A DNA stretch of 64,000 nucleotides from Candidatus Cloacimonadales bacterium (GTDB taxonomy: Bacteria > Cloacimonadota > Cloacimonadia > Cloacimonadales > JAFGVF01), in contig CAXXJV010000002.1 of NCBI GenBank assembly GCA_963663475.2, positions 288,001 to 352,000 on the forward strand, given 5' to 3'. Shown piece by piece: positions 16,099 through 31,907 of this stretch. The position numbers and the translations under genes are program-made. The notes beneath the pieces are model-generated. The model ran no database searches and was not told the origin of the DNA. It was given only the letters and a program-made list of their open reading frames with translations. The stretch's first letter is position 1; every line of letters begins with the position of its first letter.

Positions 16099-16221
16099 TA
16101 TGCACTTTGAAATTAAATTGCAGTGAATGAGAAATTATTTTGCAGTTTAGTCAAAAGTACACTGTTGAGAAATTAAATTGCAGTTTAGTTCTAGGATTTA
16201 GAAATTAAATTGCAGTTTAGT
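16099..16221 (+). repeat. Left end: 53-bp TIR (16099-16151) with four GAAATTAWWTTGCAGT motifs in 16109-16216
   Basis: Motifs start at 16109, 16131, 16169, 16201; putative transposase binding sites. Confidence 0.9.
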
Positions 16222-16225
16222 TTAT

Positions 16226-16681
16226 TCAAAAGTTATTTTTTTGTAGTTTAATAATCAAATCTTTACACTCTAAAAGTTCTCTTAACCTGGTAAATAATTC
16301 TTGATTAAGTTCTTGATTTTTGTTTGAAAGGATAGAGCATTCTTTTTCAGACTCTTCAATGCTTTTTTTTAAGTCATTACAGACCTTTTCCAGCTGATCA
16401 TAACGTCTTCTTAAGTTAATTAACTCACTATTATCTATCCTCTTCTCCTGGGGCTCTTTATTATCCGATAAAAACATCTCTCCCTTACCTGTTAATAACC
16501 AATCCAAAGACACTTTAAAATGTTCGGATATAAGAATAGCCGCCTTTGTTGAAGGCATATTTTTATTATTTTCAATGTCAGAAAGGTTACCTGGGCTAAT
16601 GCCAATAGACTTAGCTAACTTAGTTAAAGATAAACTATTACGCCTCCTTAAATCTTTAATACGAGAACCTATATTTTCCAT
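16226..16681 (-). CDS. Prophage repressor, XRE HTH plus C-terminal coiled coil
   Basis: IGSRIKDLRRRNSLSLTKLAKSIGISPGNLSDIEN..SLDWLLTGKGEM; AAAGGA RBS before ATG 16681. Confidence 0.88.
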   Translation of the reverse strand: MENIGSRIKDLRRRNSLSLTKLAKSIGISPGNLSDIENNKNMPSTKAAILISEHFKVSLDWLLTGKGEMFLSDNKEPQEKRIDNSELINLRRRYDQLEKVCNDLKKSIEESEKECSILSNKNQELNQELFTRLRELLECKDLIIKLQKNNF

Positions 16682-16689
16682 TTTTGTTC

Positions 16690-16771
16690 CTTTTTCCGAA
16701 TATTTATCTTGACACATTCTTATTTCCGAATAATCTTGGTTTTAGAATAAAACAAAAAAGGAATCTGTCAA
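16690..16771. promoter_or_regulatory. Lysis/lysogeny switch: overlapping divergent promoters with repeated operator-like TTTCCGAATA
   Basis: TTGACA at 16709 (+) and 16766-16771 (-); TTTCCGAATA at 16693 and 16723. Confidence 0.6.
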
Positions 16772-16965
16772 TGAAAAAAACAGAAAAGAGAAAAGTAGCA
16801 GAAGTGTTAAGAGCTTACAGAGCCATTAACAGGCTTTCCCAGGGAGAGTTTGGAAAACTATGTGACTTAACCCAGATGACAGTTTCTTTAATAGAGAATG
16901 AAAGATTCGAAAGGGTATCACTAGACACAATAAAGAAGGTAGAGGATTATGTGGCTCACCACTAA
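16771..16965 (+). CDS. Cro/Ner-like HTH regulator
   Basis: LRAYRAINRLSQGEFGKLCDLTQMTVSLIENE; divergent from the repressor. Confidence 0.8.
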   Translation: MKKTEKRKVAEVLRAYRAINRLSQGEFGKLCDLTQMTVSLIENERFERVSLDTIKKVEDYVAHH

Positions 16966-18994
16966 AGAAGCTGCTAAAAAATTAGGTATATCAACAAAAA
17001 CTATTAGAAGACGGATTTCTAATGGCGAATTGAAGACTAAATATGAAACAATCTATAAAAATGGAAGTGGAATAAAGACTCAATTTATATATGTCTTTTT
17101 TGATGAAAATAATCAGATGGACACTTCAAAAAAATCAGATGGACATCAGATGGACACTTCAAAAAAATCAGATGGACATCAGATGGACACTTCAAAAAAA
17201 TCAGATGGACATCAGATGGACACTTCAAAAAAATCAGATGGACATCAGATGGACACTTCTATCACCCCCCAAATCCAACCCTTAACCCTTCCTCCAATTT
17301 TATCAGATTATGGTCCTGATTTTTTCATTAAGCGGACATCTGGTTCCATGCGGGACAAGTTAATCGAGACATATTTAAATTTAAGTCGAGATGAGAAGAG
17401 TCAAGTTTTGGGATATGTCAGGCAGTTCATGAGTGAGCGAACCTGGTATAGTTGGGTAAGCCGATATAGGAATAGGGGTCATTTAAAGAGAAAGGTAAGA
17501 GCAGATAGGGGTAAAAGCCGTAAAGAGCTTCCTACTTTTATGCAGGAGTTATTGCAGGCAATTCTTATTTCTCATCCTCAATGGAATGTTCAGAAGGCTT
17601 ACGAGGATATGAAGCTATTGGCAGTCAATGGGGACTTAGTAGATTATTATACTGGTGAAGTATATGAAGATGTAAGTGAGTATTTGGTCCGTGAATGGAT
17701 AAAGACTTCGATCGTTCGTGATAGATGGTATTTCAGGTGGTATCCTAAGAGCAGGCGAAATCTTTATACCAGTATGAGTCATGCTCGAGGAATAAACCCA
17801 CCTAACACGGTATGGATGATAGATGATCATGACCAGGATGTATTAGTATGGAGTAAAGACAAGGATGGAAATGACAGGCAAATCAGGCCAAAGGTAATTC
17901 GTTCCTTGGATCCAGAGACTAATATGATAATGGGCTGGTGCATGACAGATGACACATATGGTTCTATTGAGATAAAGACAGCTATCATAGATGGAATAAT
18001 CAAGCATAGATGTATTCCTAAGCAGATATATTTAGAATGTGATAAAAGAATGCGGGAAAGCGGATTGATTGAAGGTTTAGAGAAGTTAGGAATAGAAGTA
18101 ATAGGAACTCCTTACAATCCGACAGCTAAGGTTAATGTAGAGCGAAGTTTTGGCAATGACAGGATGGAGCTTGATAGCAAGTATGATTCTTATATTAACC
18201 ACAACACAGTTGAGCGTCCAGATGATGCAGACAGAAGAGTTTTCACCAATTACGAGGAGTATTTCCAGGATTATGCAGATTATGTAGAGCATTGGAATAC
18301 CCAGCGACCAAGTATCTTCAGGGGCAAGATAAAAATGACTCCTGTAGATATGTGGAATGCCTGGATAAAGAGAGGTTGGAAACCTGAAATGTTACCAATG
18401 AATGTAATTGACCATATTCCTTACTGGTTTGGCAAGAAAGAAGTAAGGGTAGTTCAGGGTGGTAGAGTAAGATTTACTATAGATGGTGAGCAGTTCTACT
18501 ATTTAGGAGAGTGCTTAATGCAACTTCCTAATGGAACCCCTGTAGATATAAGAAGAAAGTTTAATGATCCTCGAGAGGGTTATGTATATATAGGTAATGA
18601 GAATTTAGGCAAGATATTCTTACAAGAGAAAGTAGGTTATGGATTCTTAGAGTTCTCACAACCGGAAGCTGTGAAAATGGTACAAGGATTTAATCTCATG
18701 AGAACCAAGTTATTGAAGGTTAATGATGAAGATTATCCATTTATCAAATCTTATCTTAATAGAATTGAGGAACTTAGCAAGTCACAAATCAAAGACGCAA
18801 CTATGTTAATCCCCAATAAGATCATTCGTTTCATCAACGAAAAGACAGGTTCAGCTTTAGAAGTATCTGAGAAGATGCGACAAGAAGAAGTATCAGTTCT
18901 TAAGGTTAAGAGTGGTTTAACTAGGAAGATGGATAGTAAGGTGAATGATTTGGATGATGAAATTAGTGCCTTATTGGGAGGAAGTGGAGAGTGA
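16949..18994 (+). CDS. MuA-like DDE transposase
   Basis: N-terminal HTH (WLTTKEAAKKLGISTKTIRRR), RADRGKSR, WMIDDH, YNPTAKVNVERSFG, HWNTQRP, C-terminal beta-barrel (RVVQGGRVRF...FYY). Confidence 0.88.
   Translation: MWLTTKEAAKKLGISTKTIRRRISNGELKTKYETIYKNGSGIKTQFIYVFFDENNQMDTSKKSDGHQMDTSKKSDGHQMDTSKKSDGHQMDTSKKSDGHQMDTSITPQIQPLTLPPILSDYGPDFFIKRTSGSMRDKLIETYLNLSRDEKSQVLGYVRQFMSERTWYSWVSRYRNRGHLKRKVRADRGKSRKELPTFMQELLQAILISHPQWNVQKAYEDMKLLAVNGDLVDYYTGEVYEDVSEYLVREWIKTSIVRDRWYFRWYPKSRRNLYTSMSHARGINPPNTVWMIDDHDQDVLVWSKDKDGNDRQIRPKVIRSLDPETNMIMGWCMTDDTYGSIEIKTAIIDGIIKHRCIPKQIYLECDKRMRESGLIEGLEKLGIEVIGTPYNPTAKVNVERSFGNDRMELDSKYDSYINHNTVERPDDADRRVFTNYEEYFQDYADYVEHWNTQRPSIFRGKIKMTPVDMWNAWIKRGWKPEMLPMNVIDHIPYWFGKKEVRVVQGGRVRFTIDGEQFYYLGECLMQLPNGTPVDIRRKFNDPREGYVYIGNENLGKIFLQEKVGYGFLEFSQPEAVKMVQGFNLMRTKLLKVNDEDYPFIKSYLNRIEELSKSQIKDATMLIPNKIIRFINEKTGSALEVSEKMRQEEVSVLKVKSGLTRKMDSKVNDLDDEISALLGGSGE
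17114..17259 (+). repeat. In-frame 33-bp tandem repeat, 4.4 copies (QMDTSKKSDGH)
   Basis: Unit CAGATGGACACTTCAAAAAAATCAGATGGACAT. Confidence 0.95.
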
Positions 18995-19054
18995 TTTTGA
19001 ATTGAGAATAAAGGGATATTTGAACAGAGAATAGAGTGATTAAGAGTGAGAAAT

Positions 19055-19167
19055 GTAGGGGCGAAACATCTTTCGCCCAATTAAGAAACCACCCCGTCTT
19101 GGAAATACCAAGACACCCCTCCACAGAGGGGAATTAAGAATGCCGGCAAGATGCCAGCGTTCCCAGT
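19055..19167. repeat. Cluster of three different REP-like palindromes after the transposase
   Basis: GTAGGGGCGAAA..TTTCGCCC; ACCACCCCGTC..CCCCTCCACAGAGGGGAATT; TGCCGGCAAGATGCCAGCGTTCCCAGT. Confidence 0.85.
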
Positions 19168-19185
19168 AAAATAAGGAGTAAGAGA

Positions 19186-19458
19186 ATGGAATTAGAAGTA
19201 ATATTAAAAGAATGGGAAGATGAAGTAAGTGATTTATACAAGTTACTTCAGCAGGATGAGGAAGAGAAGAAGAAGATCAATCTCAAAATGAAAGAGAGTG
19301 AACTAGGTCAACAACGATTGGAGTTAACCAGGAGAATTAAAAAGATAAAAGGCTTAATTGAGCAAAGACGCTTTGAGATATCCGGGTTAAAGAAAGCTGA
19401 ACAAAGGCTTAAAGGCAAGGTAAAGGCAAAGAGGCGATTAACCATAGGAGAAAATTAA
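19186..19458 (+). CDS. Phage coiled-coil hypothetical protein
   Basis: AAGGAG RBS, 90 aa, heptad pattern. Confidence 0.7.
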   Translation: MELEVILKEWEDEVSDLYKLLQQDEEEKKKINLKMKESELGQQRLELTRRIKKIKGLIEQRRFEISGLKKAEQRLKGKVKAKRRLTIGEN

Positions 19459-19462
19459 GGCA

Positions 19463-19648
19463 ATGCTATGCAGGTACTGTAATGGGAAGTTAAAGGTAAT
19501 TAAGACCGAGTGTAATGATAGTGGAGTAATGCGAATAAGACGCTGTAATGATTGCGGAATGGTAATCACTACCTTTGAGAAAAACAGTCAGGAGAAAAGA
19601 GCCAATGGAAAGAAAAGCAGCAATAAGGCTGATTTGGCACAAAAGTAA
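19463..19648 (+). CDS. Zinc-ribbon protein (Ogr/Delta- or NrdR-N-like), candidate transcription regulator
   Basis: CRYC-x20-RRCNDCGMVITTFE. Confidence 0.6.
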   Translation: MLCRYCNGKLKVIKTECNDSGVMRIRRCNDCGMVITTFEKNSQEKRANGKKSSNKADLAQK

Positions 19649-20006
19649 AGACATGGGATGGACACCTGAAGAGCTTCATCAGCAGATAGGTAGTCTAAAC
19701 ATGGTTCGATTTGATAGGATAAGCTGTTGTTCAGGACGGGAGTTATCTCTAATCCTGAACCAGCTTTTTCAGGTTCAAGCATTTGTGGCAGACAGTAAAT
19801 CGGTAAGATATTTGAAGTATCTGTGTAAAGATAATGATAATAAGGAGACCTTGAAAGGTATTCTTAAGCGTTGGAAAAAGCAAAGTGTATATCAAATGAA
19901 TAACAAGCAATTAGCGTTTGCTATATCGTTTTTAAAGGGAGATGAGACTGGAGTTAGGAGTGAGGAGTTGAAGAGGCTCACCACAGAGAACACAGAGAAG
20001 AATTGA
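19605..20006 (+). CDS. GemA/Mu gp16-like protein
   Basis: AIRLIWHKSKDMGWTPEELHQQI..S..ELSLILNQL resembles the GemA N-terminus; Mu-like early context. Confidence 0.5.
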   Translation: MERKAAIRLIWHKSKDMGWTPEELHQQIGSLNMVRFDRISCCSGRELSLILNQLFQVQAFVADSKSVRYLKYLCKDNDNKETLKGILKRWKKQSVYQMNNKQLAFAISFLKGDETGVRSEELKRLTTENTEKN

Positions 20007-20080
20007 GAATTGAGAGTTGAGAGTTGAGAATTTCCTCACACGAAGACACGAAGACACGAAGAAAAAAAAGGAGTAAAATT

Positions 20081-20305
20081 ATGACTATATTTTTATTATT
20101 CACCACGATGGTATTAGCAATAATGCTTACTTTATCATTTTTCGGTTCAACAGGCCGAATATCAGAATTAGAAGAGAAGAACTTTCTTTTAAAGAGTGAG
20201 AACTATCAATTAAAGCAGAAGTTTAACCAATCACAAGACAAGCTAAAGCTTATAAAAGTTCAAGCTAAGAAATTGAGAAATATTCAGAAGTATAGGGGGT
20301 GCTAA
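20081..20305 (+). CDS. Membrane-anchored coiled-coil phage protein
   Basis: AGGAG RBS, N-terminal TM helix followed by heptad repeats. Confidence 0.65.
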   Translation: MTIFLLFTTMVLAIMLTLSFFGSTGRISELEEKNFLLKSENYQLKQKFNQSQDKLKLIKVQAKKLRNIQKYRGC

Positions 20306-20536
20306 ATGGCTGCTTTGCATAAAGCCTTAGTACAGAATGACGGTATATACTGTAATGGCACCTGGTATTATCATAAGGATATCTTAGTGAAAATGGGCCA
20401 AGAGTGCCTGGTGGAGAAAACAGGATTAGGAGAAAGAGCTAATATTTATGATTTAGAAGGTGAGAGATGGGATGGCCAAGCCCAAGCCGTGGTAACGGTG
20501 AGTGTTAAGCCTTTGAAGAGAGGAGTTAGGAAATGA
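20306..20536 (+). CDS. Stand-alone Mu transposase C-terminal-domain-like protein
   Basis: VQNDGIYCNGTWYYHKDILVKMGQECLV...ANIYDLEG pattern. Confidence 0.55.
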   Translation: MAALHKALVQNDGIYCNGTWYYHKDILVKMGQECLVEKTGLGERANIYDLEGERWDGQAQAVVTVSVKPLKRGVRK

Positions 20537-20577
20537 AGTGCTTCACACGAAGGCACGAAGGCACGAAGAAGAAAAAC

Positions 20578-20622
20578 CCCTTAACACAGAGTTTCACAGA
20601 GGTTAAGAGGAGTTTCACAGAG
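20578..20622 (+). repeat. 45-bp repeat, identical copy at 28382-28426
   Basis: CCCTTAACACAGAGTTTCACAGAGGTTAAGAGGAGTTTCACAGAG. Confidence 0.9.
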
Positions 20623-20769
20623 GTTTGAGAGTGGAAAGGATATGAAAAGCGTACTGGAATACGCATTTATACAATTTTAGATATTAACAAATAAGTCAAG
20701 AAGAAATTAAGAATTAAAGAGAATGCGGGCAGGGATGCCCACGTTCCCAGTTAATTAAAGGAGAAAAAG

Positions 20770-21411
20770 ATGTTTAAGTTTTTAGAAGCACGAAAAGAGG
20801 GAAACAAGACTATCTTAAGCGTTCCCAGATGTTTATATGAAGATTTTAGAAATGAAATAATGTTATTAATACATGGTAGTTTACTTATCGTTAATGATCA
20901 TAAGGATTTCCAAAAACAGGTAGAAAAACTGGAAAGTTTTTTGAGTGGTTCGGATCTACATATTTCTCGAGATACTCTTTCGGTATATCTTGCTTACAGT
21001 AATTGTACGGAAATATATTTGACCACACACGGAGTAAAAAGGGGCTGTAAAATGAATGAAAAGGCCACAGCAGAAGCCATGAAAGATGTATTTCGTGCTT
21101 CTGATATTCTAGAAGTTCTTGAGCATTTTTCTGAAAGCTTTGATCAAAGTCTCTTACCCGGGTCAGAGGGTCAGAGAAAGTGTAATGAAAGCACCAGATT
21201 GTGTAAAGAACCAGCTGAGCAAAGCGAGAAGAGGAAGTCTTTGCTTGAATTTCTGCGACGTGATCTGGATGAAGCGATGAAAGCTTTAATACAAACCGGA
21301 CAGTATGCTTATATTTGGCAAGAGAATCTAATAGAGCTGTTTCGCCCGACACTAAACATAATTGATAAAGATGTTCCACCTGCTTCTCAGATAGAAGTGA
21401 AGATAGTTTAG
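20770..21411 (+). CDS. Hypothetical phage protein (overlaps an antisense ORF)
   Basis: AAGGAG RBS; 213-aa ORF; 3' part may be the shadow of the minus-strand gene. Confidence 0.5.
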   Translation: MFKFLEARKEGNKTILSVPRCLYEDFRNEIMLLIHGSLLIVNDHKDFQKQVEKLESFLSGSDLHISRDTLSVYLAYSNCTEIYLTTHGVKRGCKMNEKATAEAMKDVFRASDILEVLEHFSESFDQSLLPGSEGQRKCNESTRLCKEPAEQSEKRKSLLEFLRRDLDEAMKALIQTGQYAYIWQENLIELFRPTLNIIDKDVPPASQIEVKIV

Positions 21412-21457
21412 TAATAGCTTCAGCAACCCGCATTAGGTTGAGTTCATGTTGTTTCAT
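20891..21457 (-). CDS. Antisense moron, hypothetical protein
   Basis: AGGAGG RBS and own TTGACT promoter at about 21513 on the minus strand. Confidence 0.6.
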   Translation of the reverse strand: MKQHELNLMRVAEAITKLSSLLSEKQVEHLYQLCLVSGETALLDSLAKYKHTVRFVLKLSSLHPDHVAEIQAKTSSSRFAQLVLYTIWCFHYTFSDPLTRVRDFDQSFQKNAQELLEYQKHEIHLSWLLLWPFHSFYSPFLLRVWSNIFPYNYCKQDIPKEYLEKYVDPNHSKNFPVFLPVFGNPYDH

Positions 21458-21530
21458 GGGTTCCTCCTAAAGGTAAATTTACAAATAAATACAAGTATTA
21501 ACAAATAAGTCAAGGAAAAAGGAGAAAAAG

Positions 21531-21803
21531 ATGAAACCTAGAGTGATAATCCATTTAGAGTGTGATAGTGTATTAAGAGAACCTAAAGTAGTTAAAGCCT
21601 TGGAAGATTTAGGAATCGAAATAACAGGGACAGCTTATAATCCAACAAGTAAAGTTGATGTGACGATACAGAAAGAATTAACCCTTGAAATGGCTCACAA
21701 GAAGATTGAGAGCATGTTCGAGGGGCTCCCACCCTCTAAAGTAGCCAATATACTAAGTTATATTGCTGATGAGCTAAGAGCTGATACGAGGTTTAAACTA
21801 TGA
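21531..21803 (+). CDS. Small protein with a paralogous segment of the transposase catalytic core
   Basis: IHLECD..RE....ALEDLGIEITGTAYNPTSKVDV vs transposase IYLECD..RE....GLEKLGIEVIGTPYNPTAKVNV. Confidence 0.75.
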   Translation: MKPRVIIHLECDSVLREPKVVKALEDLGIEITGTAYNPTSKVDVTIQKELTLEMAHKKIESMFEGLPPSKVANILSYIADELRADTRFKL

Positions 21804-22093
21804 AATACTATGAAATAATAGACCCTAAAGTAAAAGAAATGACTATACAAGGCATATTAGGGTCTTGTAACAAGTTAAATTTTACCGAAGAGATGCTTGA
21901 AATAGTCAAGAATATATCAGTCAGCCTGGTTCCAAAAGATAAAGGTACTTTATTAATTACAGCCTGCTTTCCTTCCAGACGGGTATTAGTAAAATCAGAT
22001 ACTCTACCAGTTAAAAATGCTGATGATCAAATTGAAATAAGCAAAGAAGAGTATGATGCTTTGGTGGAAGCAAATCATCTGGAGGAAGAGTGA
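21800..22093 (+). CDS. Hypothetical phage protein
   Basis: ATGA overlap with the previous gene; 97 aa. Confidence 0.6.
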   Translation: MKYYEIIDPKVKEMTIQGILGSCNKLNFTEEMLEIVKNISVSLVPKDKGTLLITACFPSRRVLVKSDTLPVKNADDQIEISKEEYDALVEANHLEEE

Positions 22094-22305
22094 AGGAACA
22101 AAGAAAATATGTATGGAAAATCAAGTATAAAAGCGGTAATGGAGACTATATAGAAGTAAGTGTTATTGCATCAGGTTTTGAAGCATTAGCAAAGTGGTTG
22201 TACCGGAGAATATGGGTAAACAATGTAATAACCATTTCCTTAGATAAAGAAATATTGGAGCTTGTTGATGAAGACTCTGATATACTACAATTAGATAACA
22301 ATTAA
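22090..22305 (+). CDS. Hypothetical phage protein
   Basis: GTGA overlap, GGAGG RBS; 71 aa. Confidence 0.6.
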   Translation: MKEQRKYVWKIKYKSGNGDYIEVSVIASGFEALAKWLYRRIWVNNVITISLDKEILELVDEDSDILQLDNN

Positions 22306-22331
22306 CCACCCCGCCTATACAGGCATCAAAG

Positions 22332-22370
22332 AGTTGTCGGAAGTCGCTACTTCGTAAGCAAGACCCGTCA
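22332..22370 (+). repeat. 39-bp repeat, near-identical copy at 25424-25462
   Basis: AGTTGTCGGAAGTCGCTACTTCGTRAGCAAGACCYGTCA. Confidence 0.9.
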
Positions 22371-22382
22371 AAGGAGACAAGT

Positions 22383-23093
22383 ATGAATAACGAACAATTT
22401 ATGGAGTTAAGTCCTGAAGAAAGATTTGAAGCAATCAGGAAGCTCTTAGGAAAGATGGAACTTAGTATGGTAGAGACAGGTAATCTGCTCTCTGAGATTA
22501 AGAGAATGCGAACATACAAAATAAAGGGTTATAAGAGCTTTAGAGAGTTTACTGAAGCTGAGTATAACCTACCCGGTAGAGTGGCCAATTCTTTAACTAA
22601 GATGTATGACTTCTTTATTAGAGAGATGAACCTGGATGAAGATACTATCAATAAGGTTGGTTTTGATAAGTTGGAGTTAATCCACCCAATAGTAAAAGAT
22701 ACAAGTTATGAAGTTCAGGAGGAGTGGGTAAAAACAGCTGAAGACCTTACATATCCTGAGTTAAATGAGAAAGTAAAAGAGATAAAAGTAAAAGCCCGGG
22801 AAGAAGCAAAGACCTTAAAAGATGTCTTAGTAGAACAATACTTTGAGAACATGCTGGGATACTTCAACTGCTCAAAGAGAGAATTAAATTACAAGTTAGC
22901 TCTTTATTTCCAGGATATGGATTTGGAAGAAGTTAATGAAGTGATCAGGAAGCAACAAAGGAAGTTTGAGGAAGAAATAGAAGGGTCTCACACGAAGGTA
23001 CGAAGACACGAAGAAGATAAGGCCCTTAACACAGAGGATACTTTTCCTAAGGGGAGTTTCGTAGAGATTTTAAGAGAAAAGGATAAAAGATGA
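22383..23093 (+). CDS. Phage protein with DUF3102-like N-terminal region
   Basis: VETGNLLSEIK...YKSFREFTEAEYNL...ANSLTKMYD. Confidence 0.55.
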   Translation: MNNEQFMELSPEERFEAIRKLLGKMELSMVETGNLLSEIKRMRTYKIKGYKSFREFTEAEYNLPGRVANSLTKMYDFFIREMNLDEDTINKVGFDKLELIHPIVKDTSYEVQEEWVKTAEDLTYPELNEKVKEIKVKAREEAKTLKDVLVEQYFENMLGYFNCSKRELNYKLALYFQDMDLEEVNEVIRKQQRKFEEEIEGSHTKVRRHEEDKALNTEDTFPKGSFVEILREKDKR

Positions 23094-23149
23094 AAAAAGG
23101 AATCAAACACAGTGAAATTAGTGGATAGATTAAAAAAGGAGAAAGAATA

Positions 23150-23761
23150 ATGGCAAAAGAGATTAAAGAAGGAAAGAGTGTATATTGGGTCGATGGAGAA
23201 GGATATAAGGTTCCTGTAAAGTATATCAGTAAAGATGATCAGGCCCGTGATGAGTTAGTGTGTAAAGTTATAAGTGATGTTATTGCACTTCAGAAGCAGA
23301 TAGCAGAGTTTAGAGTAGATGTCTTCAGAGTAGTGGATAATCATTTAAACAAGGTTGCCCATCAACATGGTGAAGACTGGCGAGGCAATGCCTGGATTTA
23401 TGATTTTTCTAAGGAGAAAGCCATCGAGGTTAAGATCAATAAGAGATTAGCTTTTGATGAACGCCTCCAATTAGCCAAAACTAAGATAGATAACTATATC
23501 AAAGGACTTGTGAAACAATCAGGTAAAGAGATAGTTATGCTTATTAATAAGGCCTTTAATGTCGATAAAAGAGGCAATGTAGATGTTCAGCAGATTTTAG
23601 GATTGAGACAACTAAAAATCGAACATCCGGAATGGCAAGAAGCTATGGCCTTGATAGATGAAGCAACCCAGGTAGAATCTACCAAGAAATATCTTACCTT
23701 TAAGGTTAAGGATGATACTGGGGAATGGAATACTATCAGCTTGAACTTTTCAGCACTGTAA
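23150..23761 (+). CDS. DUF3164 family protein (typical of Mu-like prophages)
   Basis: YWVDGEG..VP...RDELV, FDERLQLAK..ID, AFNVDKRG, WQEAMALI, ISLNFSAL. Confidence 0.85.
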   Translation: MAKEIKEGKSVYWVDGEGYKVPVKYISKDDQARDELVCKVISDVIALQKQIAEFRVDVFRVVDNHLNKVAHQHGEDWRGNAWIYDFSKEKAIEVKINKRLAFDERLQLAKTKIDNYIKGLVKQSGKEIVMLINKAFNVDKRGNVDVQQILGLRQLKIEHPEWQEAMALIDEATQVESTKKYLTFKVKDDTGEWNTISLNFSAL

Positions 23762-23823
23762 GAGAAGACTTTTACACGAATTTAAACGAATTTAAACCAA
23801 TTAACACGAATTAGGAGAAGATA

Positions 23824-24138
23824 ATGAATGATAAAATAAAAACTATTGATGATGAAATAGATGAAATGATAGAAAATGCAAAAAGTGCAAGCCCGGTTAA
23901 TAAGGAGGACTTGCACTTGGTTTCTGATGAAGAGTTAAGTTCTCTTGAGATAAAGAACAGGAGAATCCGCAAAACTGTTGATGTAGCAACAGATAGAATT
24001 CTTAAAACCCTTCATGCTTTGTTAGATGATGGACGTCATCACGAGGCGTCCAAGCTCATCTTTCACATTGAAATACCTTGTGTTAAGCGAGGCGTTGGCA
24101 AGCCTGTGCTTAGCTATAAGGTAGAGAGAAACTGCTAA
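23824..24138 (+). CDS. Hypothetical phage protein
   Basis: AGGAG RBS; 104 aa; 3' end overlaps the antisense gene. Confidence 0.55.
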   Translation: MNDKIKTIDDEIDEMIENAKSASPVNKEDLHLVSDEELSSLEIKNRRIRKTVDVATDRILKTLHALLDDGRHHEASKLIFHIEIPCVKRGVGKPVLSYKVERNC

Positions 24139-24393
24139 ATCAATATCCTGAGAGGCAATTCGGTTAATCTTATTTGAACATTGTTCTGGGAGACACTCCT
24201 GGAAAATACGAGAGAGAACTTTGGTTCTTTCTATGAGCACTGTCTGTTCAATAGATTCATACTTTTTGCCTCTCGCTTTTTTTATGACTTCTTCAGGAAA
24301 GACATATTTCAAAAAATCTTTGGCGAGTTTTTTCTGATTAGTTTCGTAGTAATAGAAGTCAAAGTTACCTTTATAATGAAAGGTTTCGTGCAT
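24022..24393 (-). CDS. Antisense moron, hypothetical protein
   Basis: AAGGAGG RBS and TTGACA (24446-24451, minus strand). Confidence 0.65.
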   Translation of the reverse strand: MHETFHYKGNFDFYYYETNQKKLAKDFLKYVFPEEVIKKARGKKYESIEQTVLIERTKVLSRIFQECLPEQCSNKINRIASQDIDLAVSLYLIAKHRLANASLNTRYFNVKDELGRLVMTSII

Positions 24394-24469
24394 AATATCC
24401 TCCTTTGGAATTAATTATTTCAATAATCGAAGGATAAACTAAAAATGTCAAGTTTTTAAAGGAGAGAAG

Positions 24470-24682
24470 ATGTCTATAATGCTTTGGAAATATTATCTAC
24501 TGGGCTTATTTATTGTTTTAGGATATGGAAGATTATCAAAAAGTGTAATATGTTATCATTTTTTAATAATGCTTATGTTTCCTATATTAGTGGTAATCCA
24601 CTGCCTGAAGATAATAATTCTCTATATAAAAGCATATTGTCCAAAATATGAAATAAGATTTATCCCGGAGAAAAGAAAATGA
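24470..24682 (+). CDS. Small two-TM membrane protein
   Basis: AAGGAG RBS, two hydrophobic stretches, ATGA coupling to the next gene. Confidence 0.55.
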   Translation: MSIMLWKYYLLGLFIVLGYGRLSKSVICYHFLIMLMFPILVVIHCLKIIILYIKAYCPKYEIRFIPEKRK

Positions 24683-25353
24683 CCAACAGAGAGTTATATA
24701 TCAAAGCTGTAGAGTTAGTAGGTAAGGAAGTAATGGAAGTCAAGCAGAGGCAGTTCTTACAGAGGATAATTAAGAAGAACCAAGCCCCTAAATCCCCTAA
24801 AGGGGACTTTGATAAGATGGGAATGAAGAATGAGATATACCAGGAAATAATCACTTATTTAAATAACCTGTCAGGTAAACAATTTCGTTGGAATACTCCA
24901 GAGACTAAAGCTTTAATCAGAGCCAGATTAAACGAAGGTTTTACAGTAAAAGAATTTAAACAGGTTATAGATATTAAGTGTAAGCAATGGCTGACAAATG
25001 AGTATTTTAAATTCTTAAGGCCGAAGACTCTTTTTGGTACTAAATTTGAGGGTTATCTGCAAGAATGGATAGTCTTTAAGAAGAAAGAAGAATATCAAAG
25101 GAAAGAGCTCGAGAAAGCTAGGAGGATTGAGAGAGGACTTCCTGATGAAACTATTACTCCGGAAGAGTTGAAAAAACAAGAAGAGTGGAGAAAGCAAAGT
25201 AAAGAGCTCTTAGCTAAAGCTAGTGAAGAGGATTATAAGACCTTTTATAAGCAATTAAAGCCACCTTTTAAAGACATGGCCTATAAAAGGGGATTGAAGG
25301 ATAATCTTGTGAAGTTGTATTATATTCAGTGGTTAAAAATGAATAAAGACTGA
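24679..25353 (+). CDS. Protein with conserved phage C-terminal (Phg_2220_C-like) replication-initiator domain
   Basis: EIITYLNNLSGKQFR...LIRARLNEGFTVKEFKQVIDIKCKQW...FLRPKTLFGTKFEGYLQ. Confidence 0.8.
   Translation: MTNRELYIKAVELVGKEVMEVKQRQFLQRIIKKNQAPKSPKGDFDKMGMKNEIYQEIITYLNNLSGKQFRWNTPETKALIRARLNEGFTVKEFKQVIDIKCKQWLTNEYFKFLRPKTLFGTKFEGYLQEWIVFKKKEEYQRKELEKARRIERGLPDETITPEELKKQEEWRKQSKELLAKASEEDYKTFYKQLKPPFKDMAYKRGLKDNLVKLYYIQWLKMNKD
24783..24812 (+). repeat. 30-bp palindromic repeat in frame within a CDS; identical copy at 36829-36858
   Basis: AGCCCCTAAATCCCCTAAAGGGGACTTTGA, read as APKSPKGDF in both genes. Confidence 0.92.
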
Positions 25354-25539
25354 AGAGTTAGGAGTTAGGAGTTAGGAGTTTAAGAGGCTCACACGAAGGC
25401 ACGAAGACACGAAGAAGAAGACCAGTTGTCGGAAGTCGCTACTTCGTGAGCAAGACCTGTCATTAGAGTAATTAGTGTAATTAGCCTGGGTTGGCATAGC
25501 TTTAGCGACGCCACCTGGATAGATTAAAAGGAGTTGAAG

Positions 25540-27018
25540 ATGAGTAGGTTCGCCAAGATATTAGCAATTAGTAGAATAGCTAAAAAAACAGGTAATAATG
25601 GCCTTTCCAAAAAAGACCAGGAGAAGTTGTTTAATGCCCTGGTAAAAGATATTACCACCCCGCCCAGGGGCACCCCTCCACAGAGGGGAATTAAAAAGAG
25701 CAATCTTTCTAATTTTACCAAAGTGGCAGAAGAGATAATGGGAGATAATCCCCAAGTAACAAAGTCTTATACAAAATTAGTAGAGAAATGGATAGAGCCT
25801 TATTCAGCAGGGCAAAAGCAGCTAATATTCAGTCAATACCAATCCTTTAGTCAAACAGCTTGGTTTCGTTCTTTAACTAATGACTATGTGTCTAATCTGC
25901 AAGGAAGAGGAGTTACTAAGGTTCAAATCTTGGCTTATATGGATGACAGAACAACCGAGATATGCCAGGCCATGCACGGAAGAGTCTTTGATATATCTTC
26001 TTATAGCATTGACCCTGATTTTGTTACTTATGAGAAGATTGAGTCTATGGGTTATGGAAGTATGCCAACTAAAGATATGAAGGTAATGCTACCTCCTTAT
26101 CATTTTAATTGCAGGACTACTTTTGTTACTTATGAAGAGGCGACTAATGATTTCGATAAAATCAAACAGAAAATATATGATGTAGAAAGTTTAACAAGCA
26201 AAGATGTTAAAACGATTATGGAGCCTCTCAAGGGGGCTGAATGGCTTAATAAATCAAAAGAGAGCCAGCACTATCAGAAGCATGGGATTGACCAAGGCTT
26301 AAGCAGAGAGAAATACAAGCAACAAATTATTGACAGTTTACAAGACAATGATAATATGTACTTGGCAGTTAATAAAGGTAACAAAAACCTTACTTTAACA
26401 ACGGTTAAATATCATCATCTAAGTGATAAAGGTGTTAAAAAATACCTATTTACTATCTTCCTGGTTAAAGAAGGCAAGGTTGTTACCAGTCATCTTAAGC
26501 CAGAGAATGAAGTTTTGCCAAAGGTTAAAGATAAGGCAATAAAAGTTGTTAGTATTAATAATGGTAAGCAAAGAATAATAAAGGAAGCTATCATGAAAAA
26601 AGAAGATTATTGGAACAGGCATAACTCTTATGACAGCATTATAGCAGAGGTTGAGGATAACAAGAAGTGGGGTAATTATCCTCTCAACTGCCTTGTTACC
26701 TGGTACCAATATGTACCCAGTGAGTTAGAAGATGATGAAGACTGGCATTGGGAATTAGATAGATCTATTCCTGCCCGTTATGATATTCATATCCTGCTGA
26801 TGAATGACTATAACTTCACCCAGGAAGAAAGAAACTTAATAGAGAGAACTGATAAAAAACTCTTAGATAACATTGATTATTACTTTAAGAAGATTAAAGT
26901 TATAAGCCCAGATGAACTGGCAGAGTTTTTGATTTGGTTGCAGGAAGCGAGAGAAGCAGAGAAGAAAGAAGAGTCTCACACGAAGACACTAAGCCACGAA
27001 GAAAACACAAAAAAATAA
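25540..27018 (+). CDS. MuF (gpF/SPP1 gp7) minor head protein with C-terminal toxin-like extension
   Basis: DDRTTEICQAMHGRVF, LPPYHFNCRT; then a HYQKHG domain and an acidic C-terminal domain. Confidence 0.8.
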   Translation: MSRFAKILAISRIAKKTGNNGLSKKDQEKLFNALVKDITTPPRGTPPQRGIKKSNLSNFTKVAEEIMGDNPQVTKSYTKLVEKWIEPYSAGQKQLIFSQYQSFSQTAWFRSLTNDYVSNLQGRGVTKVQILAYMDDRTTEICQAMHGRVFDISSYSIDPDFVTYEKIESMGYGSMPTKDMKVMLPPYHFNCRTTFVTYEEATNDFDKIKQKIYDVESLTSKDVKTIMEPLKGAEWLNKSKESQHYQKHGIDQGLSREKYKQQIIDSLQDNDNMYLAVNKGNKNLTLTTVKYHHLSDKGVKKYLFTIFLVKEGKVVTSHLKPENEVLPKVKDKAIKVVSINNGKQRIIKEAIMKKEDYWNRHNSYDSIIAEVEDNKKWGNYPLNCLVTWYQYVPSELEDDEDWHWELDRSIPARYDIHILLMNDYNFTQEERNLIERTDKKLLDNIDYYFKKIKVISPDELAEFLIWLQEAREAEKKEESHTKTLSHEENTKK

Positions 27019-27028
27019 AGGAGTTATT

Positions 27029-27574
27029 ATGAGAAAGTTAGTATTTATAGTGTGTTTGGTATTGTCGTTAATCCAATTAAATGCCAAAAATGATGTTATA
27101 AGTCATACTGAGTTTGGCTGTACCTTGGGGCATTCAATAAACCAAAGAGGCTATACTGCTTCAGCATATCTGTTTAGCCGAAGTAAGTACAGTTCTAAAT
27201 TTTCTCCATTTATAAAAGTTCTAATCGACTACAAAGGCGAACCTAAAGGTGTACTTATAGAAGATGAACCTTTTAGTTGGTGGGTTGATACAGGTAGAGA
27301 ACTATATGAAAAACATATTATTTCTATTGGGAATGTTTATACTATAGACAGAAAATGCAGATATAAATTTGTTCCTTACTTAGGTTTTGGCTTTAAAGAA
27401 AATTTTATTCAGTGGGATTCATCCATTGGAGAGGTATTTTATTCTTCAAAATCTATTAATACTCTTGGTGAAGCTGGAGTAGATTTTCTGTTTGTGTATA
27501 AGCAATTACTTATTTCATTAGGTATTTCTGCTCAGGCAGGAGCTAATCTGGGGGTTGGATTTAGGTACTATTAA
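27029..27574 (+). CDS. Exported outer-membrane beta-barrel-like moron
   Basis: Signal peptide, alternating beta-strands, PYLGFG, C-terminal LGVGFRYY. Confidence 0.65.
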   Translation: MRKLVFIVCLVLSLIQLNAKNDVISHTEFGCTLGHSINQRGYTASAYLFSRSKYSSKFSPFIKVLIDYKGEPKGVLIEDEPFSWWVDTGRELYEKHIISIGNVYTIDRKCRYKFVPYLGFGFKENFIQWDSSIGEVFYSSKSINTLGEAGVDFLFVYKQLLISLGISAQAGANLGVGFRYY

Positions 27575-27586
27575 AAAATATCTTGA

Positions 27587-27703
27587 CAGCGTGTAAAACA
27601 CTGCACCCCTCATGGCAGTGAAGATGATATTAACGCAGGAATGATAGCTATAGTTCTTCGTGAACTATCTGATGAGGTAACTAAAGATTTGTTTCAATCC
27701 TAA
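27587..27703 (+). pseudogene. Possible 3' remnant of a HicA-like toxin gene
   Basis: Frame without an upstream start ..CTPHGSEDDINAGMIAIVLRELSDEVTKDLFQS* between TTGACA and a terminator. Confidence 0.3.
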
Positions 27704-27709
27704 ATAATC

Positions 27710-27742
27710 AAAGAGCAGGCATCAAAACCTGCTCTTTTTTTT
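27710..27742 (+). terminator. Rho-independent terminator
   Basis: AAAGAGCAGG-catcaaaa-CCTGCTCTTT followed by a T run. Confidence 0.85.
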
Positions 27743-27754
27743 GCTTAAAATTAT

Positions 27755-27791
27755 CTAAACTGCAATTTAATTTCTCAATCTTAGAACTAAA
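27755..27791 (+). repeat. Internal copy of the prophage end motif (right-end orientation)
   Basis: CTAAACTGCAATTTAATTTCTCAATCTTAGAACTAAA. Confidence 0.88.
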
Positions 27792-27830
27792 GGCGTATTC
27801 AATACGCCCCTACATTCTCAATTCTCAATT

Positions 27831-28325
27831 CTAAATTCTCAATTCCTGAAGTGTCATTTTCACTGCCAATTCTAAGAAAGGGCTAGGTTTTCTTCCGTGT
27901 TTTTTCATATTGATAGCAATAGCCCAAGCAGTTTGGGTTATTTTTTTATCTATCAAGTCTTGTTTCTTGGGTCTTTTACTTCTTTTCATGCTTTGAGCTT
28001 TAGACCAGGCACTTTTTATCTCATTTTTTACTATTCCCTTCTTGCGAACCCATTCTTTAATCTTATCAACTGGGGGCATATGGGGCTTGATTCCTTCATG
28101 TAGGTACTTAGGATATTTGGTAGAACCTGAGAGTTTCCCACCTTCAGCAACATATACCAGAATATAGGTTTCAGTATCAGACACCACAGTTTTAGTCTGG
28201 ATAGAGTTCTTTAAATGCCCTGTAACGACCATTTTCTCACTTTCTACGATGTTTATTGCCCTTGCCCTTATCTTGTCAGCAATTAAACCTAATTCTTCTT
28301 TTAAATGCCTTTTTACGCTTTCCAT
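27831..28325 (-). CDS. HK97 gp10 / Mu gpG-like virion morphogenesis protein
   Basis: VTGHLKNSI, YPKYLHEG..PHMPP, PSPFLE. Confidence 0.75.
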   Translation of the reverse strand: MESVKRHLKEELGLIADKIRARAINIVESEKMVVTGHLKNSIQTKTVVSDTETYILVYVAEGGKLSGSTKYPKYLHEGIKPHMPPVDKIKEWVRKKGIVKNEIKSAWSKAQSMKRSKRPKKQDLIDKKITQTAWAIAINMKKHGRKPSPFLELAVKMTLQELRI

Positions 28326-28510
28326 CAATTCTCCTTATTAATCTATCCACTAATTTCACTAATTACACTAATTAAGAAATACCCTTAACACAGAGTTTCA
28401 CAGAGGTTAAGAGGAGTTTCACAGAGTTTTTAAACTCTCAATTCTCAACTCTCAATTCTTCTCTGTGTTCTCTGTGTTCTCTGTGGTGAGTCTCTTCAAC
28501 TTCTCACTCA

Positions 28511-28873
28511 CTATATATCAATAAAAGGCAAAAATCCTTCTCGTTCATTTATGATGTCATAGATAATCAGATTAGCTTCTTTGAGATAAAAGTCTTGTCT
28601 TCTCATCACATCAGCATCAGAAATTAAATGTTGAGCAGATTCACCTGTCCCCACTTGTTTAAAGACTCCTTTATTGCCTGCTATATAAGATATACGAGGT
28701 ATCAGGTAATATGCAGTTAAATACTTAAGAGCCTTGGTTATAGCATTATCTCCTGTATCTTCTACACCCTTGCGGCCGATGTATTCATAAGCATCATTTA
28801 TAGCATTCTCAATCACATCGTTATTTACATCTGTAATGTTCATAAATGTTTTAATCTGGTCTGCAGTAATCAT
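28511..28873 (-). CDS. Putative head-tail connector protein
   Basis: MITADQIK..VIENAINDAYEYI..ALKYLTAYYL, gp6/gp36-like pattern; downstream of portal. Confidence 0.55.
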   Translation of the reverse strand: MITADQIKTFMNITDVNNDVIENAINDAYEYIGRKGVEDTGDNAITKALKYLTAYYLIPRISYIAGNKGVFKQVGTGESAQHLISDADVMRRQDFYLKEANLIIYDIINEREGFLPFIDI

Positions 28874-29250
28874 AAAAGCTCCTCAAAGTGTAAGGTTTCT
28901 GTAGTTAAATTAAAGAGGGTGGCCTTGTACTCACTTCCGTTTATAACAAGGGGTGGTGATGTTTCAAGAGAGACAAATAAGTCAGCATCAAACTGCTCAA
29001 TTTTACTGAGCAATTCTAAGACAATTTGAGTATGATTTACACTAGTTTCATCTGTTTTAGTTACTATGGTAAGACTTACGTCCACCTGGTATCGGTTGAG
29101 GTTTAGAGATTCATTTTTCTTTTTAAAGACCTTTTCCAAGGAATACAGAGCCTTTCTATGGTAAGAGGCAATATCAGTATTAATATCTACTAAAGAAAGG
29201 CCTGTGCCTGCAATTAGCTCTTCTATCACATTCCATAAGGGGTAAATCAT
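28870..29250 (-). CDS. Putative head/tail completion protein
   Basis: 126 aa, coupled to portal; position only. Confidence 0.45.
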   Translation of the reverse strand: MIYPLWNVIEELIAGTGLSLVDINTDIASYHRKALYSLEKVFKKKNESLNLNRYQVDVSLTIVTKTDETSVNHTQIVLELLSKIEQFDADLFVSLETSPPLVINGSEYKATLFNLTTETLHFEELL

Positions 29251-30305
29251 TAAGACCTCCTAAGCAAGCTGTCCACACTTGTATTTTCTTTGATATTATA
29301 GACTAGAGGGTTAATAGTGAAGTCTGGATTATTTCCAAAAATACCAGGATATTTCTTTGCCAGTCCTCCGAATTGCCCAGATAAGACTAATTGTTTTGGA
29401 TGGATGGTAGTCTGGAAGAAGATCTCCATTTGCCCTTCAGTTTCTCCTGAACCTCCCATAGCAGTAGTATTAACCATAGAGAGTAAGCGGGGTGGTACTG
29501 CATGACAAGCAATGATGTTAGTAATACATTGTTGCTCCAACTGTAAGAAAGAAGCATCTTCTCTTTGCTGTAAAGCAGTCCATTTTCCTGACATTCCTTC
29601 TTTGTAAGGTATAACTAAAAGTTTATGAGCTCTTTCTTCTCCCTGGAACTTTTGTCTGAAGAAAGATTGAACATTATATTGAGCATTGGGTGAAATAGCT
29701 CCTCCCATTATCTCATAAACATAGTCTGGGATAGCGTTATTATCAAAAAATCTCTCATTATAAGTCTTAATCCTTTTAATAATCCTAATATCAGGGAGTA
29801 TAGGAAGATAAGAAGGTGCACCATAAATTGTAGATAAAGGTGTAGCTTGTTTAAAATGAAATACTTCATCTTCTTTAAAATCAACACTTTCTCCGTTAAC
29901 TGTTTGCCTGTAACCTGTTTTAATTTTTCTCATAGTTTGAGCAGGCAAGTGAAAGATTTGTCTTTTGCTTCCTACTTTAGGTAACTCCCAGTAAGCATTT
30001 CCATACATTTCATAATCCTTAATTGTTTTTAATAATAAAGTAATTGCTGAATCTGTTGGCGTTACTTCTTCCAGGATGTCCATAATTCTCTTATCAAAGC
30101 CCTTGCCCAGGATATTGATTGCTTTCTTTTCAATACACTCAGCATGATAAGGATTGATTGTATAAGCATCAGTGAGTTCATCCATTTCAAAAGGATAGTT
30201 GAACTCGTCGTCTTTTAAATCTAAAGCCTTACTTTTAGATGCTTGAGTATCATCAGATTTACTGATAATTACAAATGGTTCGTAGTTTAATTCATTACTA
30301 TTCAT
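29250..30305 (-). CDS. Portal protein (PBSX/P2 gpQ type)
   Basis: YEMYGNAYWE, IYGAPSY, YNERFFDNNAIP, IIACHAVPPRLL. Confidence 0.88.
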   Translation of the reverse strand: MNSNELNYEPFVIISKSDDTQASKSKALDLKDDEFNYPFEMDELTDAYTINPYHAECIEKKAINILGKGFDKRIMDILEEVTPTDSAITLLLKTIKDYEMYGNAYWELPKVGSKRQIFHLPAQTMRKIKTGYRQTVNGESVDFKEDEVFHFKQATPLSTIYGAPSYLPILPDIRIIKRIKTYNERFFDNNAIPDYVYEIMGGAISPNAQYNVQSFFRQKFQGEERAHKLLVIPYKEGMSGKWTALQQREDASFLQLEQQCITNIIACHAVPPRLLSMVNTTAMGGSGETEGQMEIFFQTTIHPKQLVLSGQFGGLAKKYPGIFGNNPDFTINPLVYNIKENTSVDSLLRRS

Positions 30306-30337
30306 ATATTTCTCCTTTTATTCCCCTACATTCCTCA

Positions 30338-31606
30338 CTAAACAACCATCACTCCATCAATCACTCTTTCAGAATGTCTTAAATCATAAAGCATAGCTAA
30401 AGACCAAAATTTATCTCCATGATGTTCAGTGCTTTCTGCATTATAGGAGAAGATGTTAGTACGGTTAGCAGATCTCTTTATTGATAAAATATGATTAAGC
30501 AGTGAAGGATCATTTGGTATTAATAGTTTCTTGTCTTCGAAGCCTCTTTTTAATCTTTTGGCAAGCCTTTCTTTAACAGCAGGAGCAAAGCTATATCCCT
30601 CAATTACATTAGGATAAAGGTAAGATAAATCTTCCCAGAGATTATAACCTATACCACCTCTATCTATAGCAAATCCATCTGCATCAGATTGTCTTATCAA
30701 GTTTATAAAAAACTCTTTCTGATAGGCAAAAGTCTCTCTCTTTAAGTCCTTTATATAATTAACAACCATTAACTTATCATCATTAATAAAGGCTCCTGTG
30801 ATAGCAGTTTCATCTTTCTTTCTTCCAATATCAGCAGCATAAAACATTTTAGTGTCTTCAGGGGTTGGATGTTCGTTAACATAAAGACAGGGTTCTATCA
30901 GGTTGTAAGGAATATAAGAGTCTGTAGTATCTAATGGCAGGCATTCATAAGCTTGAGCAAATTCTTCAGGTGTAAAAAGACTTCTTAATTCATCAACATT
31001 AATATCAAGTCCTTCTTCTTTGGCTGTATGAATAGTGATTAAATGCTTAGAAAAAGCATCATTCTTATCCCATATTTCCCAAAACTTATCTATCCTACTC
31101 TTAGGAGTCGAGATTACTGTTACTCTTCCTTGAGCTGCTGTAATAGCAGGAATAATAGCTTTCCATACTTCCCTGTCCTGGATAATAAAAGCAAACTCAT
31201 CTAAATATACATCACCTGCAAAACCTCTAGCAGTCATCCAATTAGTCGCCAAAGCTTTAATACTTTTACCATTGGGCATTAAGATTTCATGTTCAGTATC
31301 ATTAAAAGCTTCTATTCCCATTGCTTTAAGATGACTTCTTACATGGTTCATCACAATAACAGCATTATCTTTAGAAGCTGAAACTATTAACTGGTCCTTG
31401 TTATTAATTAATGAACCAATAATCATCTCTAGGCCTGATAGAAAAGAAAATCCTATTTGTCTCGATTTATTAGCAATCCTATACCTGGATTTATCAGCTA
31501 AGAACTTCTTTTGATATATTCTTAAGTTCTTGATACAGTATTGCTGTATAGCAGTCCTGACAAAAGCAGGTACCTTATCTGTTGACCATATTTGCCCTTT
31601 TTTCAT
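30338..31606 (-). CDS. terL: Terminase large subunit
   Basis: YQKKFLAD, NKSRQIGFS, VYLDEFAF, ISTP, ADIGRKKD, HGDKFWSLA. Confidence 0.93.
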   Translation of the reverse strand: MKKGQIWSTDKVPAFVRTAIQQYCIKNLRIYQKKFLADKSRYRIANKSRQIGFSFLSGLEMIIGSLINNKDQLIVSASKDNAVIVMNHVRSHLKAMGIEAFNDTEHEILMPNGKSIKALATNWMTARGFAGDVYLDEFAFIIQDREVWKAIIPAITAAQGRVTVISTPKSRIDKFWEIWDKNDAFSKHLITIHTAKEEGLDINVDELRSLFTPEEFAQAYECLPLDTTDSYIPYNLIEPCLYVNEHPTPEDTKMFYAADIGRKKDETAITGAFINDDKLMVVNYIKDLKRETFAYQKEFFINLIRQSDADGFAIDRGGIGYNLWEDLSYLYPNVIEGYSFAPAVKERLAKRLKRGFEDKKLLIPNDPSLLNHILSIKRSANRTNIFSYNAESTEHHGDKFWSLAMLYDLRHSERVIDGVMVV

Positions 31607-31875: not shown

Positions 31876-31907
31876 TCCATGTAATTAATTTTATTAAGGA
31901 GGCTTGA

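Follow-up and report, generated by a model that had tools for sequence, protein, structure and literature searches.

A two-module mini-gene with a transposase-derived head in an accessory slot of a Cloacimonadales Mu-like prophage

Introduction

Does a short reading frame that resembles part of a DDE transposase, and that stands apart from the transposase gene of the same prophage, encode a regulator of transposition, or is it something else? The question is raised by a mini-gene in a 64,000-nt stretch of DNA from a Candidatus Cloacimonadales bacterium (contig CAXXJV010000002.1, positions 288,001 to 352,000), referred to hereafter as the window; coordinates are those of the window unless a contig is named. 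A first-pass annotation, made from the letters alone, had described the mini-gene as a duplicated piece of the transposase catalytic core whose product is a catalytically dead mimic, acting as a regulator of the transpososome or as a decoy, and had proposed that together with the gene at 20306 it compensates for a missing MuB. Here we examine where the two halves of the mini-gene come from, how they are distributed among relatives, and which of the possible roles the evidence favors.

Results

The prophage and its transposase

The mini-gene lies in a Mu-like transposable prophage of about 26.9 kb (16099..42979). The termini of the prophage are perfect inverted repeats of 53 nt (16099-16151 and 42927-42979), and its end sites are repeated. 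Genes for a repressor, a Ner-like protein, DUF3164, terminase, portal, protease, capsid, endolysin, tail-fibre and tape-measure proteins are present, so that head, tail and lysis functions are all represented. The prophage occurs as a mosaic family of four copies with 90-100% identity, one in the window and the others at G000 C1:1-23265, C1:1362917-1391213 and C2:1-14149. While the transposase region of the last of these (C2:11143-13505) is only 90% identical, positions 20327-22070 are identical in all four, and the copies are therefore uninformative on selection in this interval. Two copies touch contig ends, the assembly breaking at the prophage repeat. In G000 C1:1364720-1366173 (about window position 17897) some 1.45 kb of extra DNA interrupts the transposase gene, leaving an open frame of 375 aa compared to 680-683 aa elsewhere.

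The transposase (16949..18994, + strand, 681 aa) is of the MuA/TnsB DDE family. It matches phrog_310 'transposase' (E 3.6e-37), and a profile of it and nine homologues (A4) matches the TnsB structures 8rdu and 7svw (E 5.5e-5); no phage record out of 50,697 matched it. In its 5' part the gene contains five tandem 33-nt repeats (17079-17276) that encode QMDTSKKSDGH about four times. The homologue in a relative of the same genus, G003, lacks these repeats and has its N-terminus split into 74-aa and 594-aa frames.

Shorter tandem repeats, of 7-8 nt, stand between many of the prophage genes and are in every case oriented with the local coding strand. Their units are (CACGAAGR)3, (CACAGAG)n, (TTGAGAR)n and (GGAGTTA)n, found at 19933-20084, 20523-20626, 22968-23036, 25344-25462 and 26949-27003, with reverse-complement arrays at 27814-27845, 28366-28509, 31706-31790 and 34424-34454. 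The depth of metagenome contigs at these repeats is very high (644 at 20002-20168 in run X5) with many joints, and the repeats may act as boundaries for recombination or regulation. Between the gene for a 181-aa protein and the first minus-strand late gene, at 27749-27816, the end-site repeat occurs once more inside the prophage, oriented as at the right end.

No MuB-type ATPase was detectable in the prophage at Pfam sensitivity, as the first-pass annotation had assumed. None of the 41 AAA_22 matches and neither of the two TniB matches in the genome falls inside any of the four prophage copies, the only Walker-A pattern in six frames lies within a 30-aa frame and offers no usable P-loop, and the mini-protein and its neighbors gave no hit to an AAA family. 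In PMC8705779, TnpA and TnpB are described as the sole core proteins of transposable phages.

The mini-gene has the signals and codon usage of a gene

The mini-gene (21531..21803, + strand) begins with ATG and encodes 90 aa plus a stop. A ribosome-binding site, AAGGAG, has its 3' end 7 nt upstream of the start, as good as it had been judged at first sight. The DNA is identical in all four prophage copies, and the frame is unbroken in every instance found. The stop overlaps the start of a gene for a 97-aa protein in the sequence ATGA, and the GAGG that precedes this second gene sits within the last codons of the mini-gene. The downstream gene (21800..22093, + strand) was identified from the list of open reading frames and from reading the sequence, and has no family match. 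A promoter scan returned 9 sites, compared to 7.7 expected.

Codon usage was scored against 11 confident prophage genes (+0.20 to +0.48 per codon) and the antisense frames of the same genes (-0.19 to -0.62). The score of the mini-gene, +0.196 per codon, is within or near the range of the confident genes, and both the N-terminal part (+0.224) and the C-terminal part (+0.165) are gene-like. Gene-like codon usage, together with the far stronger conservation of the N-terminal part described below, indicates that the mini-gene is probably a real gene.

The head corresponds to a segment of the transposase catalytic core

A BLASTP comparison of the mini-protein with the 681-aa transposase aligned residues 7-44 with residues 360-397 (18026..18139, + strand). 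Identity was 22/38 with 30/38 positives and no gaps (52.4 bits, pairwise E 1e-13), which bears out both the gapless match over residues 6-44 or thereabouts that had been seen by eye and the description of the frame as diverged but open. At the DNA level 75 of 114 bases are identical, while the 60 bases on each side of the match, compared in register, are unrelated (19/60 and 16/60). The DNA alignment suggests that homology extends back to Pro3 across a one-codon gap, so that the transposase-like part would begin practically at the start codon. We refer to residues 3-44 (21537..21662, + strand) as the head.

In the alignment with TnsB, Asp365 of the transposase falls on the motif YTDGGKDF and Glu398 on the catalytic-Glu motif VVERPF, and both residues are invariant in the ten aligned members of the family. 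The second catalytic Asp, Asp365, has its counterpart in Asp12 of the mini-protein. The homology ends at Val44/Val397, one residue short of Glu398, whose place is taken by Thr45; the earlier observation that the match stops at the catalytic Glu holds. Judged by these alignments, the head is the segment from the second catalytic Asp to the residue preceding the catalytic Glu, a strand-helix-strand-loop that presumably spans strands 4 and 5 of the RNase H-like fold with the helix between them, and the active-site loop. AlphaFold2 placed strands at residues 5-10 and 29-32 and a helix at 18-26 with low confidence. The model of the whole mini-protein, made from a three-sequence alignment, had a mean pLDDT of 54.7 and fell below 50 at residues 34-49, and was set aside as a fold-search query on grounds of quality.

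Only the second Asp of the Asp-Asp-Glu triad is present in the mini-protein. The head covers about 42 of the 681 residues of the transposase, less than an RNase H-like fold and an end-binding domain, and Pfam detected neither an rve nor an HTH domain in the mini-protein. Because the first Asp, the Glu and most of the fold are missing, the head cannot be catalytic; to judge from its sequence, catalysis by the mini-protein is excluded, as the term catalytically dead had implied.

The head is an old offshoot of the family

Compared to the resident transposase, the head has a dS of 1.7 (saturated), a dN of 0.31 and a dN/dS of 0.18. This ratio was dropped as a test of function, as most of the divergence may predate capture. 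Eleven transposases of the family, which share 35-90% overall identity with the one in the window, were compared with the head; identity to each was 50-59% for the mini-protein (P0001) and 51-61.5% for the head of a relative, P0003. All 11 are matched, so the homology is not due to chance. Since dS is saturated and identity is 50-61% to every one of the 11, the head is not a recent duplicate of the resident gene. It is an old offshoot, equidistant from all sampled members of the family, none of which is its source. Of the original claim of duplication, the derivation from a transposase catalytic core stands, but the resident gene is not what was duplicated.

Twenty of 29 columns conserved in ten transposases are unchanged in the head and nine are changed, among them the invariant Lys366-Arg367-Met368, which became Ser-Val-Leu, and Gly372, which became Lys. 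Variable columns changed more often (7/9) than conserved ones (9/29; Fisher p 0.021). The hydrophobic pattern and the motifs LECD and YNPT.K are kept. By this comparison, certain constraints specific to transposases have been lost in the head.

The tail is a separate module

The residues after the head have a different origin. A word-indexed search of 5.8 billion clusters found four relatives besides the mini-protein itself. P0002 (90 aa) is 87% identical over its full length and has both parts; P0003 (94 aa) has a head like that of the mini-protein and a strongly diverged C-terminal part; P0004 and P0005 (both 112 aa) have the C-terminal part of the mini-protein behind a quite different N-terminus. 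Residues 49-90 are 93% identical to residues 71-112 of P0004, and alignment A5 concurs. Homology to P0004 and P0005, and to a contig of metagenome run X7, starts at residue 49 (position 21675). We therefore refer to residues 49-90 (21675..21800, + strand) as the tail, and to residues 45-48, TIQK (21663..21674, + strand), which lie between the end of one homology and the start of the other, as the linker.

An exhaustive HMMER search of 1.84 billion representatives gave three hits, namely P0002, P0004 and one spurious repeat protein, P0006 (E 3.2e-4), which scores through six short repeats and was rejected as a relative. L032, the sole tail-side locus from the contig scans, was rejected too, as it is part of a restriction-enzyme gene in a GC-rich organism. 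A word-based search, which is a weak one for this purpose, found no longer proteins that share words with the head.

The alternative head of P0004 and P0005 is a widespread phage domain of about 50 residues that is unrelated to transposases. It forms the C-terminal part of small stand-alone proteins at 24 metagenome loci and one genome locus, where it neighbors phage helicase, exonuclease, methyltransferase and capsid genes; scans of genome and metagenome contigs with P0005 and P0004 returned only such relatives of the alternative head and not the P0004 and P0005 loci themselves. Of the 15 stand-alone proteins aligned, 14 terminate no more than about 10 residues past the domain, at the place where proteins of the P0004 type continue into the tail, so that the tail is an add-on in the P0004 type too. 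The domain is unannotated (DGNQWC.LYGEDLQSG.AGFGDTP), and its small proteins belong to replication and recombination modules (loci L010-L031 and L009, for example L011:9899-10165 and L025:9938-10201).

In the model of P0004 (mean pLDDT 73.7) the head folds as alpha-beta-beta-beta-alpha and is followed by a low-confidence linker at residues 65-73 and a two-helix tail (74-84 and 90-106). The corresponding helices in the model of the mini-protein are at 52-62 and 68-89. Beyond residue 48 the mini-protein is thus predicted to be helical, and it bears no relation to the transposase there, as had been proposed. A ribbon-helix-helix fold was considered for the tail and rejected, as the P0004 model has two helices after a disordered linker and no strand; no family of that fold was matched at E up to 0.1, nor up to 1.

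No family that carries a function matched the head or the tail. A Foldseek search of the PDB with the P0004 model gave a best E of 0.17, with weak dsRBD-like rows of which none was significant, and a sequence-profile search of the PDB with A3 gave a best E of 0.27, to a generic helix-strand motif in nitrogenase chains. In the ESM Atlas the mini-protein had no usable hit and P0004 had hits of 0.86-0.88 to unnamed clusters. PADLOC reported nothing meaningful at the mini-gene and its neighbors.

The tail recurs behind another head, the head recurs on a diverged tail, and the linker of the P0004 model is of low confidence. On the strength of these alignments and models, head and tail are separate modules joined by a linker, the mini-gene is a two-module chimera, and both architectures are fusions.

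The mini-gene is cargo in a hypervariable slot

The mini-gene is preceded by a 38-nt leader (21496..21533, + strand) that consists of a 19-nt box, GAA, and a 16-nt box containing the ribosome-binding site and ATG. Both boxes have an exact second copy upstream, the 19-nt box at 20682-20700 and 21496-21514 and the 16-nt box at 20757-20772 and 21518-21533. The first leader copy is split by a 56-nt hairpin element (20701-20756) and precedes a 213-aa ORF. Together they form an upstream cassette (20682..21495, + strand) in which the 213-aa ORF (20770-21411, +) overlaps an antisense ORF of 188 aa (20891-21457, -).

Neither ORF of the cassette has a family match. The 213-aa ORF carries the ribosome-binding site of the shared leader and the 188-aa ORF carries AGGAGG, while the codon scores were +0.138 and +0.010, respectively. 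The 188-aa ORF, considered as a divergent gene because of its AGGAGG, was dropped on the codon scores and the shared leader, and we lean towards the plus strand as the coding strand of 20770-21457. Copies of a GC-rich hairpin element, about 36-41 nt long, lie in either orientation at 19133-19167, 20723-20758, 34452-34492 and 38120-38189; the second of these is the insert of 56 nt in the first leader, and the element scores as terminator-like on the minus strand.

Other cargo follows the leader in relatives. In G003 the leader is 35/38 identical and is followed by an unrelated ORF of 106 aa, and the membrane-protein and DUF3164 genes are separated by a block of about 0.7 kb, compared to 2.8 kb in the window. 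Contigs of four metagenome runs were compared with 19000-24000 and two of them, one from run X7 and one from run X5, were informative. The X7 contig (3184 nt) is collinear over 20757-21535 and again over 21675-22093, but 705 other letters replace 21536-21674, the region of the head. Over the tail and the 97-aa gene (21675-22093) it has 32 differences in 419 nt, and its first leader has GAA in place of the 56-nt hairpin element. The X5 contig contains 21496-21885 with 5 differences in 390 nt, so that the mini-gene is present, and the upstream cassette is absent: 20681 is joined directly to 21496, with 19 letters that fit either side, leaving a single leader and then the mini-gene. Joints such as 20573 to 22332 were not taken as absence of the block, since they may reflect the paralogous repeat at 25380-25462 in two pieces. 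P0005 and P0009, an 88%-identical transposase, are each on a contig of 17,332 nt, probably the same one.

At least four cargoes are therefore found after the leader, namely the mini-gene, the 213-aa ORF, the 106-aa ORF of G003 and the 705-nt replacement in X7. Since the conserved leader precedes different cargo in relatives, the mini-gene is cargo in a hypervariable accessory slot of the transposable prophage.

Distribution and divergence

The family is extremely rare. About 15 billion proteins contained three sequences with the head, and the family was absent from 2.9 million viral contigs, 50,697 phage records and 231 other genomes of the phylum. Sequencing runs with related sequence were landfill, wastewater, sludge and soda-lake metagenomes, and no RNA run was among them. 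Keyword searches of the literature brought up neither a mini-gene derived from a transposase core nor transposable phages of Cloacimonadota.

Divergence is concentrated in the tail. Relative to P0002, 0 of 48 positions changed in the head and 12 of 42 in the tail (p 4e-5); relative to P0003, the numbers were 6/48 and 32/42 (p 6e-10). The contrast, which is drawn from protein comparison, could reflect recombination between lineages and not selection. The first-pass annotation had offered absence or a broken frame in relatives as the mark of a decaying fragment. The mini-gene is indeed absent or replaced in some of them, but where present it is never broken, and the head is more conserved than the tail.

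Discussion

We read the mini-gene as a real but dispensable accessory gene of the Mu-like prophage, built by module shuffling, and give this reading a probability of about 55%. Recombination at the leader and at the flexible linker would have assembled the two modules and later re-assorted them. The product would be a small protein that binds rather than catalyses, expressed from the early operon, and its translation may be coupled to that of the downstream 97-aa gene. In such a protein the tail might be the constant part that works with the 97-aa neighbor and the head the swappable part that confers specificity. By analogy with other cargo of hypervariable slots, a role in phage-host or phage-phage conflict is most likely, rather than one as a core part of transposition. 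The extreme rarity of the family and the poor AlphaFold2 model weigh against an accessory gene, and a piece of 40 residues cut from an RNase H-like fold would not be expected to fold alone.

The same rarity and low-confidence model would suit a recombination scar, in which a transposase fragment serves as filler between the leader and a pre-existing tail and has stayed open because it is young and short, with no selected function. The mini-gene sits in the most recombinogenic block of the phage and is missing or exchanged in relatives, as a scar might be. We nevertheless regard this explanation as doubtful. The head diverged from all transposases long ago and its frame is still intact, three different tail alleles carry it almost unchanged, both halves have gene-like codon usage, and both junctions are in frame, one at the start codon and one at the linker.

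That the product mimics the transposase, its head docking on the transposase or transpososome or soaking up a binder of the core and so tuning or blocking transposition, seems to us unlikely. The retention of LECD, YNPT.K and 20 of the 29 conserved columns, the near invariance of the head among P0001-P0003 and the position of the mini-gene in the early region downstream of the transposase are all in its favor, and the several related transposase alleles in the genome, one of them 90% identical at the DNA level, would give scope for interference between phages. Against it, nine conserved columns are changed, including Lys366-Arg367-Met368 and Gly372, the head is interchangeable with a domain unrelated to transposases, the G003 relative does without the mini-gene, and the head slice contains no DNA-binding or multimerisation domain of the kind that known transposase-derived inhibitors keep whole. 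A prediction of the complex between the mini-protein and transposase residues 262-575, with alignments for both chains, scored 0.00 and 0.01 without controls and carries no weight in either direction. We think it similarly unlikely, or slightly more so, that the head still targets the transposition machinery at all. A specific form of this idea, in which the head is kept to imitate the active-site region of the transposase (the second Asp and the YNPT.K loop) as a decoy mounted on a helical adaptor, poisoning transpososome assembly by rival transposable phages in the same cell or masking the transposase from a host sensor, is improbable.

Finally, although no MuB/TniB-type ATPase is detectable in the prophage, the proposal that the mini-gene and the 76-aa gene at 20306 form a split accessory system replacing the missing target-DNA ATPase hardly deserves credence, as neither protein has a nucleotide-binding motif or a family match, the two genes are separated by a cassette (20682-21495) that the X5 relative lacks, and the G003 prophage fragment has neither gene, nor an ATPase, between its transposase and DUF3164 genes.

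If the mini-gene is an accessory gene built by shuffling, it illustrates cleanly, and in a way that can be dated, how new small genes arise in phages, from a slice of an essential enzyme gene, a reusable leader and a portable helical module, with the halves re-assorted among relatives after fusion. Should the head still recognise the transposase or a partner, it would represent a new way of regulating or sabotaging DDE transposition and would provide a handle on a transposable phage of an uncultured lineage, probably Cloacimonadota, in which no MuB-type ATPase is detectable. Were the decoy reading true, the mini-protein would define a new class of transposase-core-derived conflict protein in transposable phages. 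The prophage itself is multi-copy although it has no detectable MuB-type ATPase, the product of a gene regarded as core in PMC8705779.

How does the mini-gene compare with known systems? Through its head the mini-protein is related to MuA/TnsB-family DDE transposases in the stretch from the second Asp up to the Glu. It has neither the first Asp nor the Glu, strands 1-3 are missing along with the DNA-binding domains and the beta-barrel, and it is not a member of that family. Its likeness to the MuB/TnpB AAA+ target-binding ATPases is positional only, in that both are encoded downstream of the transposase; it has neither the ATPase motifs nor the size nor the homology.

Transposase-derived inhibitors of transposition include Tn5 Inh, the P-element KP repressor, IS1 InsA and IS911 OrfA. 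Like the mini-protein, these are shorter, catalytically inactive relatives of a transposase encoded on the same element. They are, however, products of the transposase gene itself in which a DNA-binding or multimerisation domain is complete. The mini-gene is instead a separate locus 2.5 kb downstream with its own leader and start, and its product joins an internal slice of about 42 residues from the catalytic core, with 58% identity to the resident transposase, to a tail of unrelated sequence.

The semi-essential early region of Mu-like phages is among the hypervariable cargo slots. The mini-gene resembles the mosaic chimeric ORFs and 'moron'-type cargo of such slots in having conserved flanks around small variable cargo, junctions at gene starts or linkers, and a dispensable character. 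Short genes of unknown function in the early region of Mu and B3 are mentioned in PMC8705779. The mini-gene departs from 'moron'-type cargo in two respects: one of its modules is a recognisable piece of the phage's own replication enzyme family, and its head and tail re-assort independently, with two heads and at least two tail alleles. On our best reading, the mini-gene belongs with the chimeric cargo ORFs of hypervariable phage slots, an already known kind.
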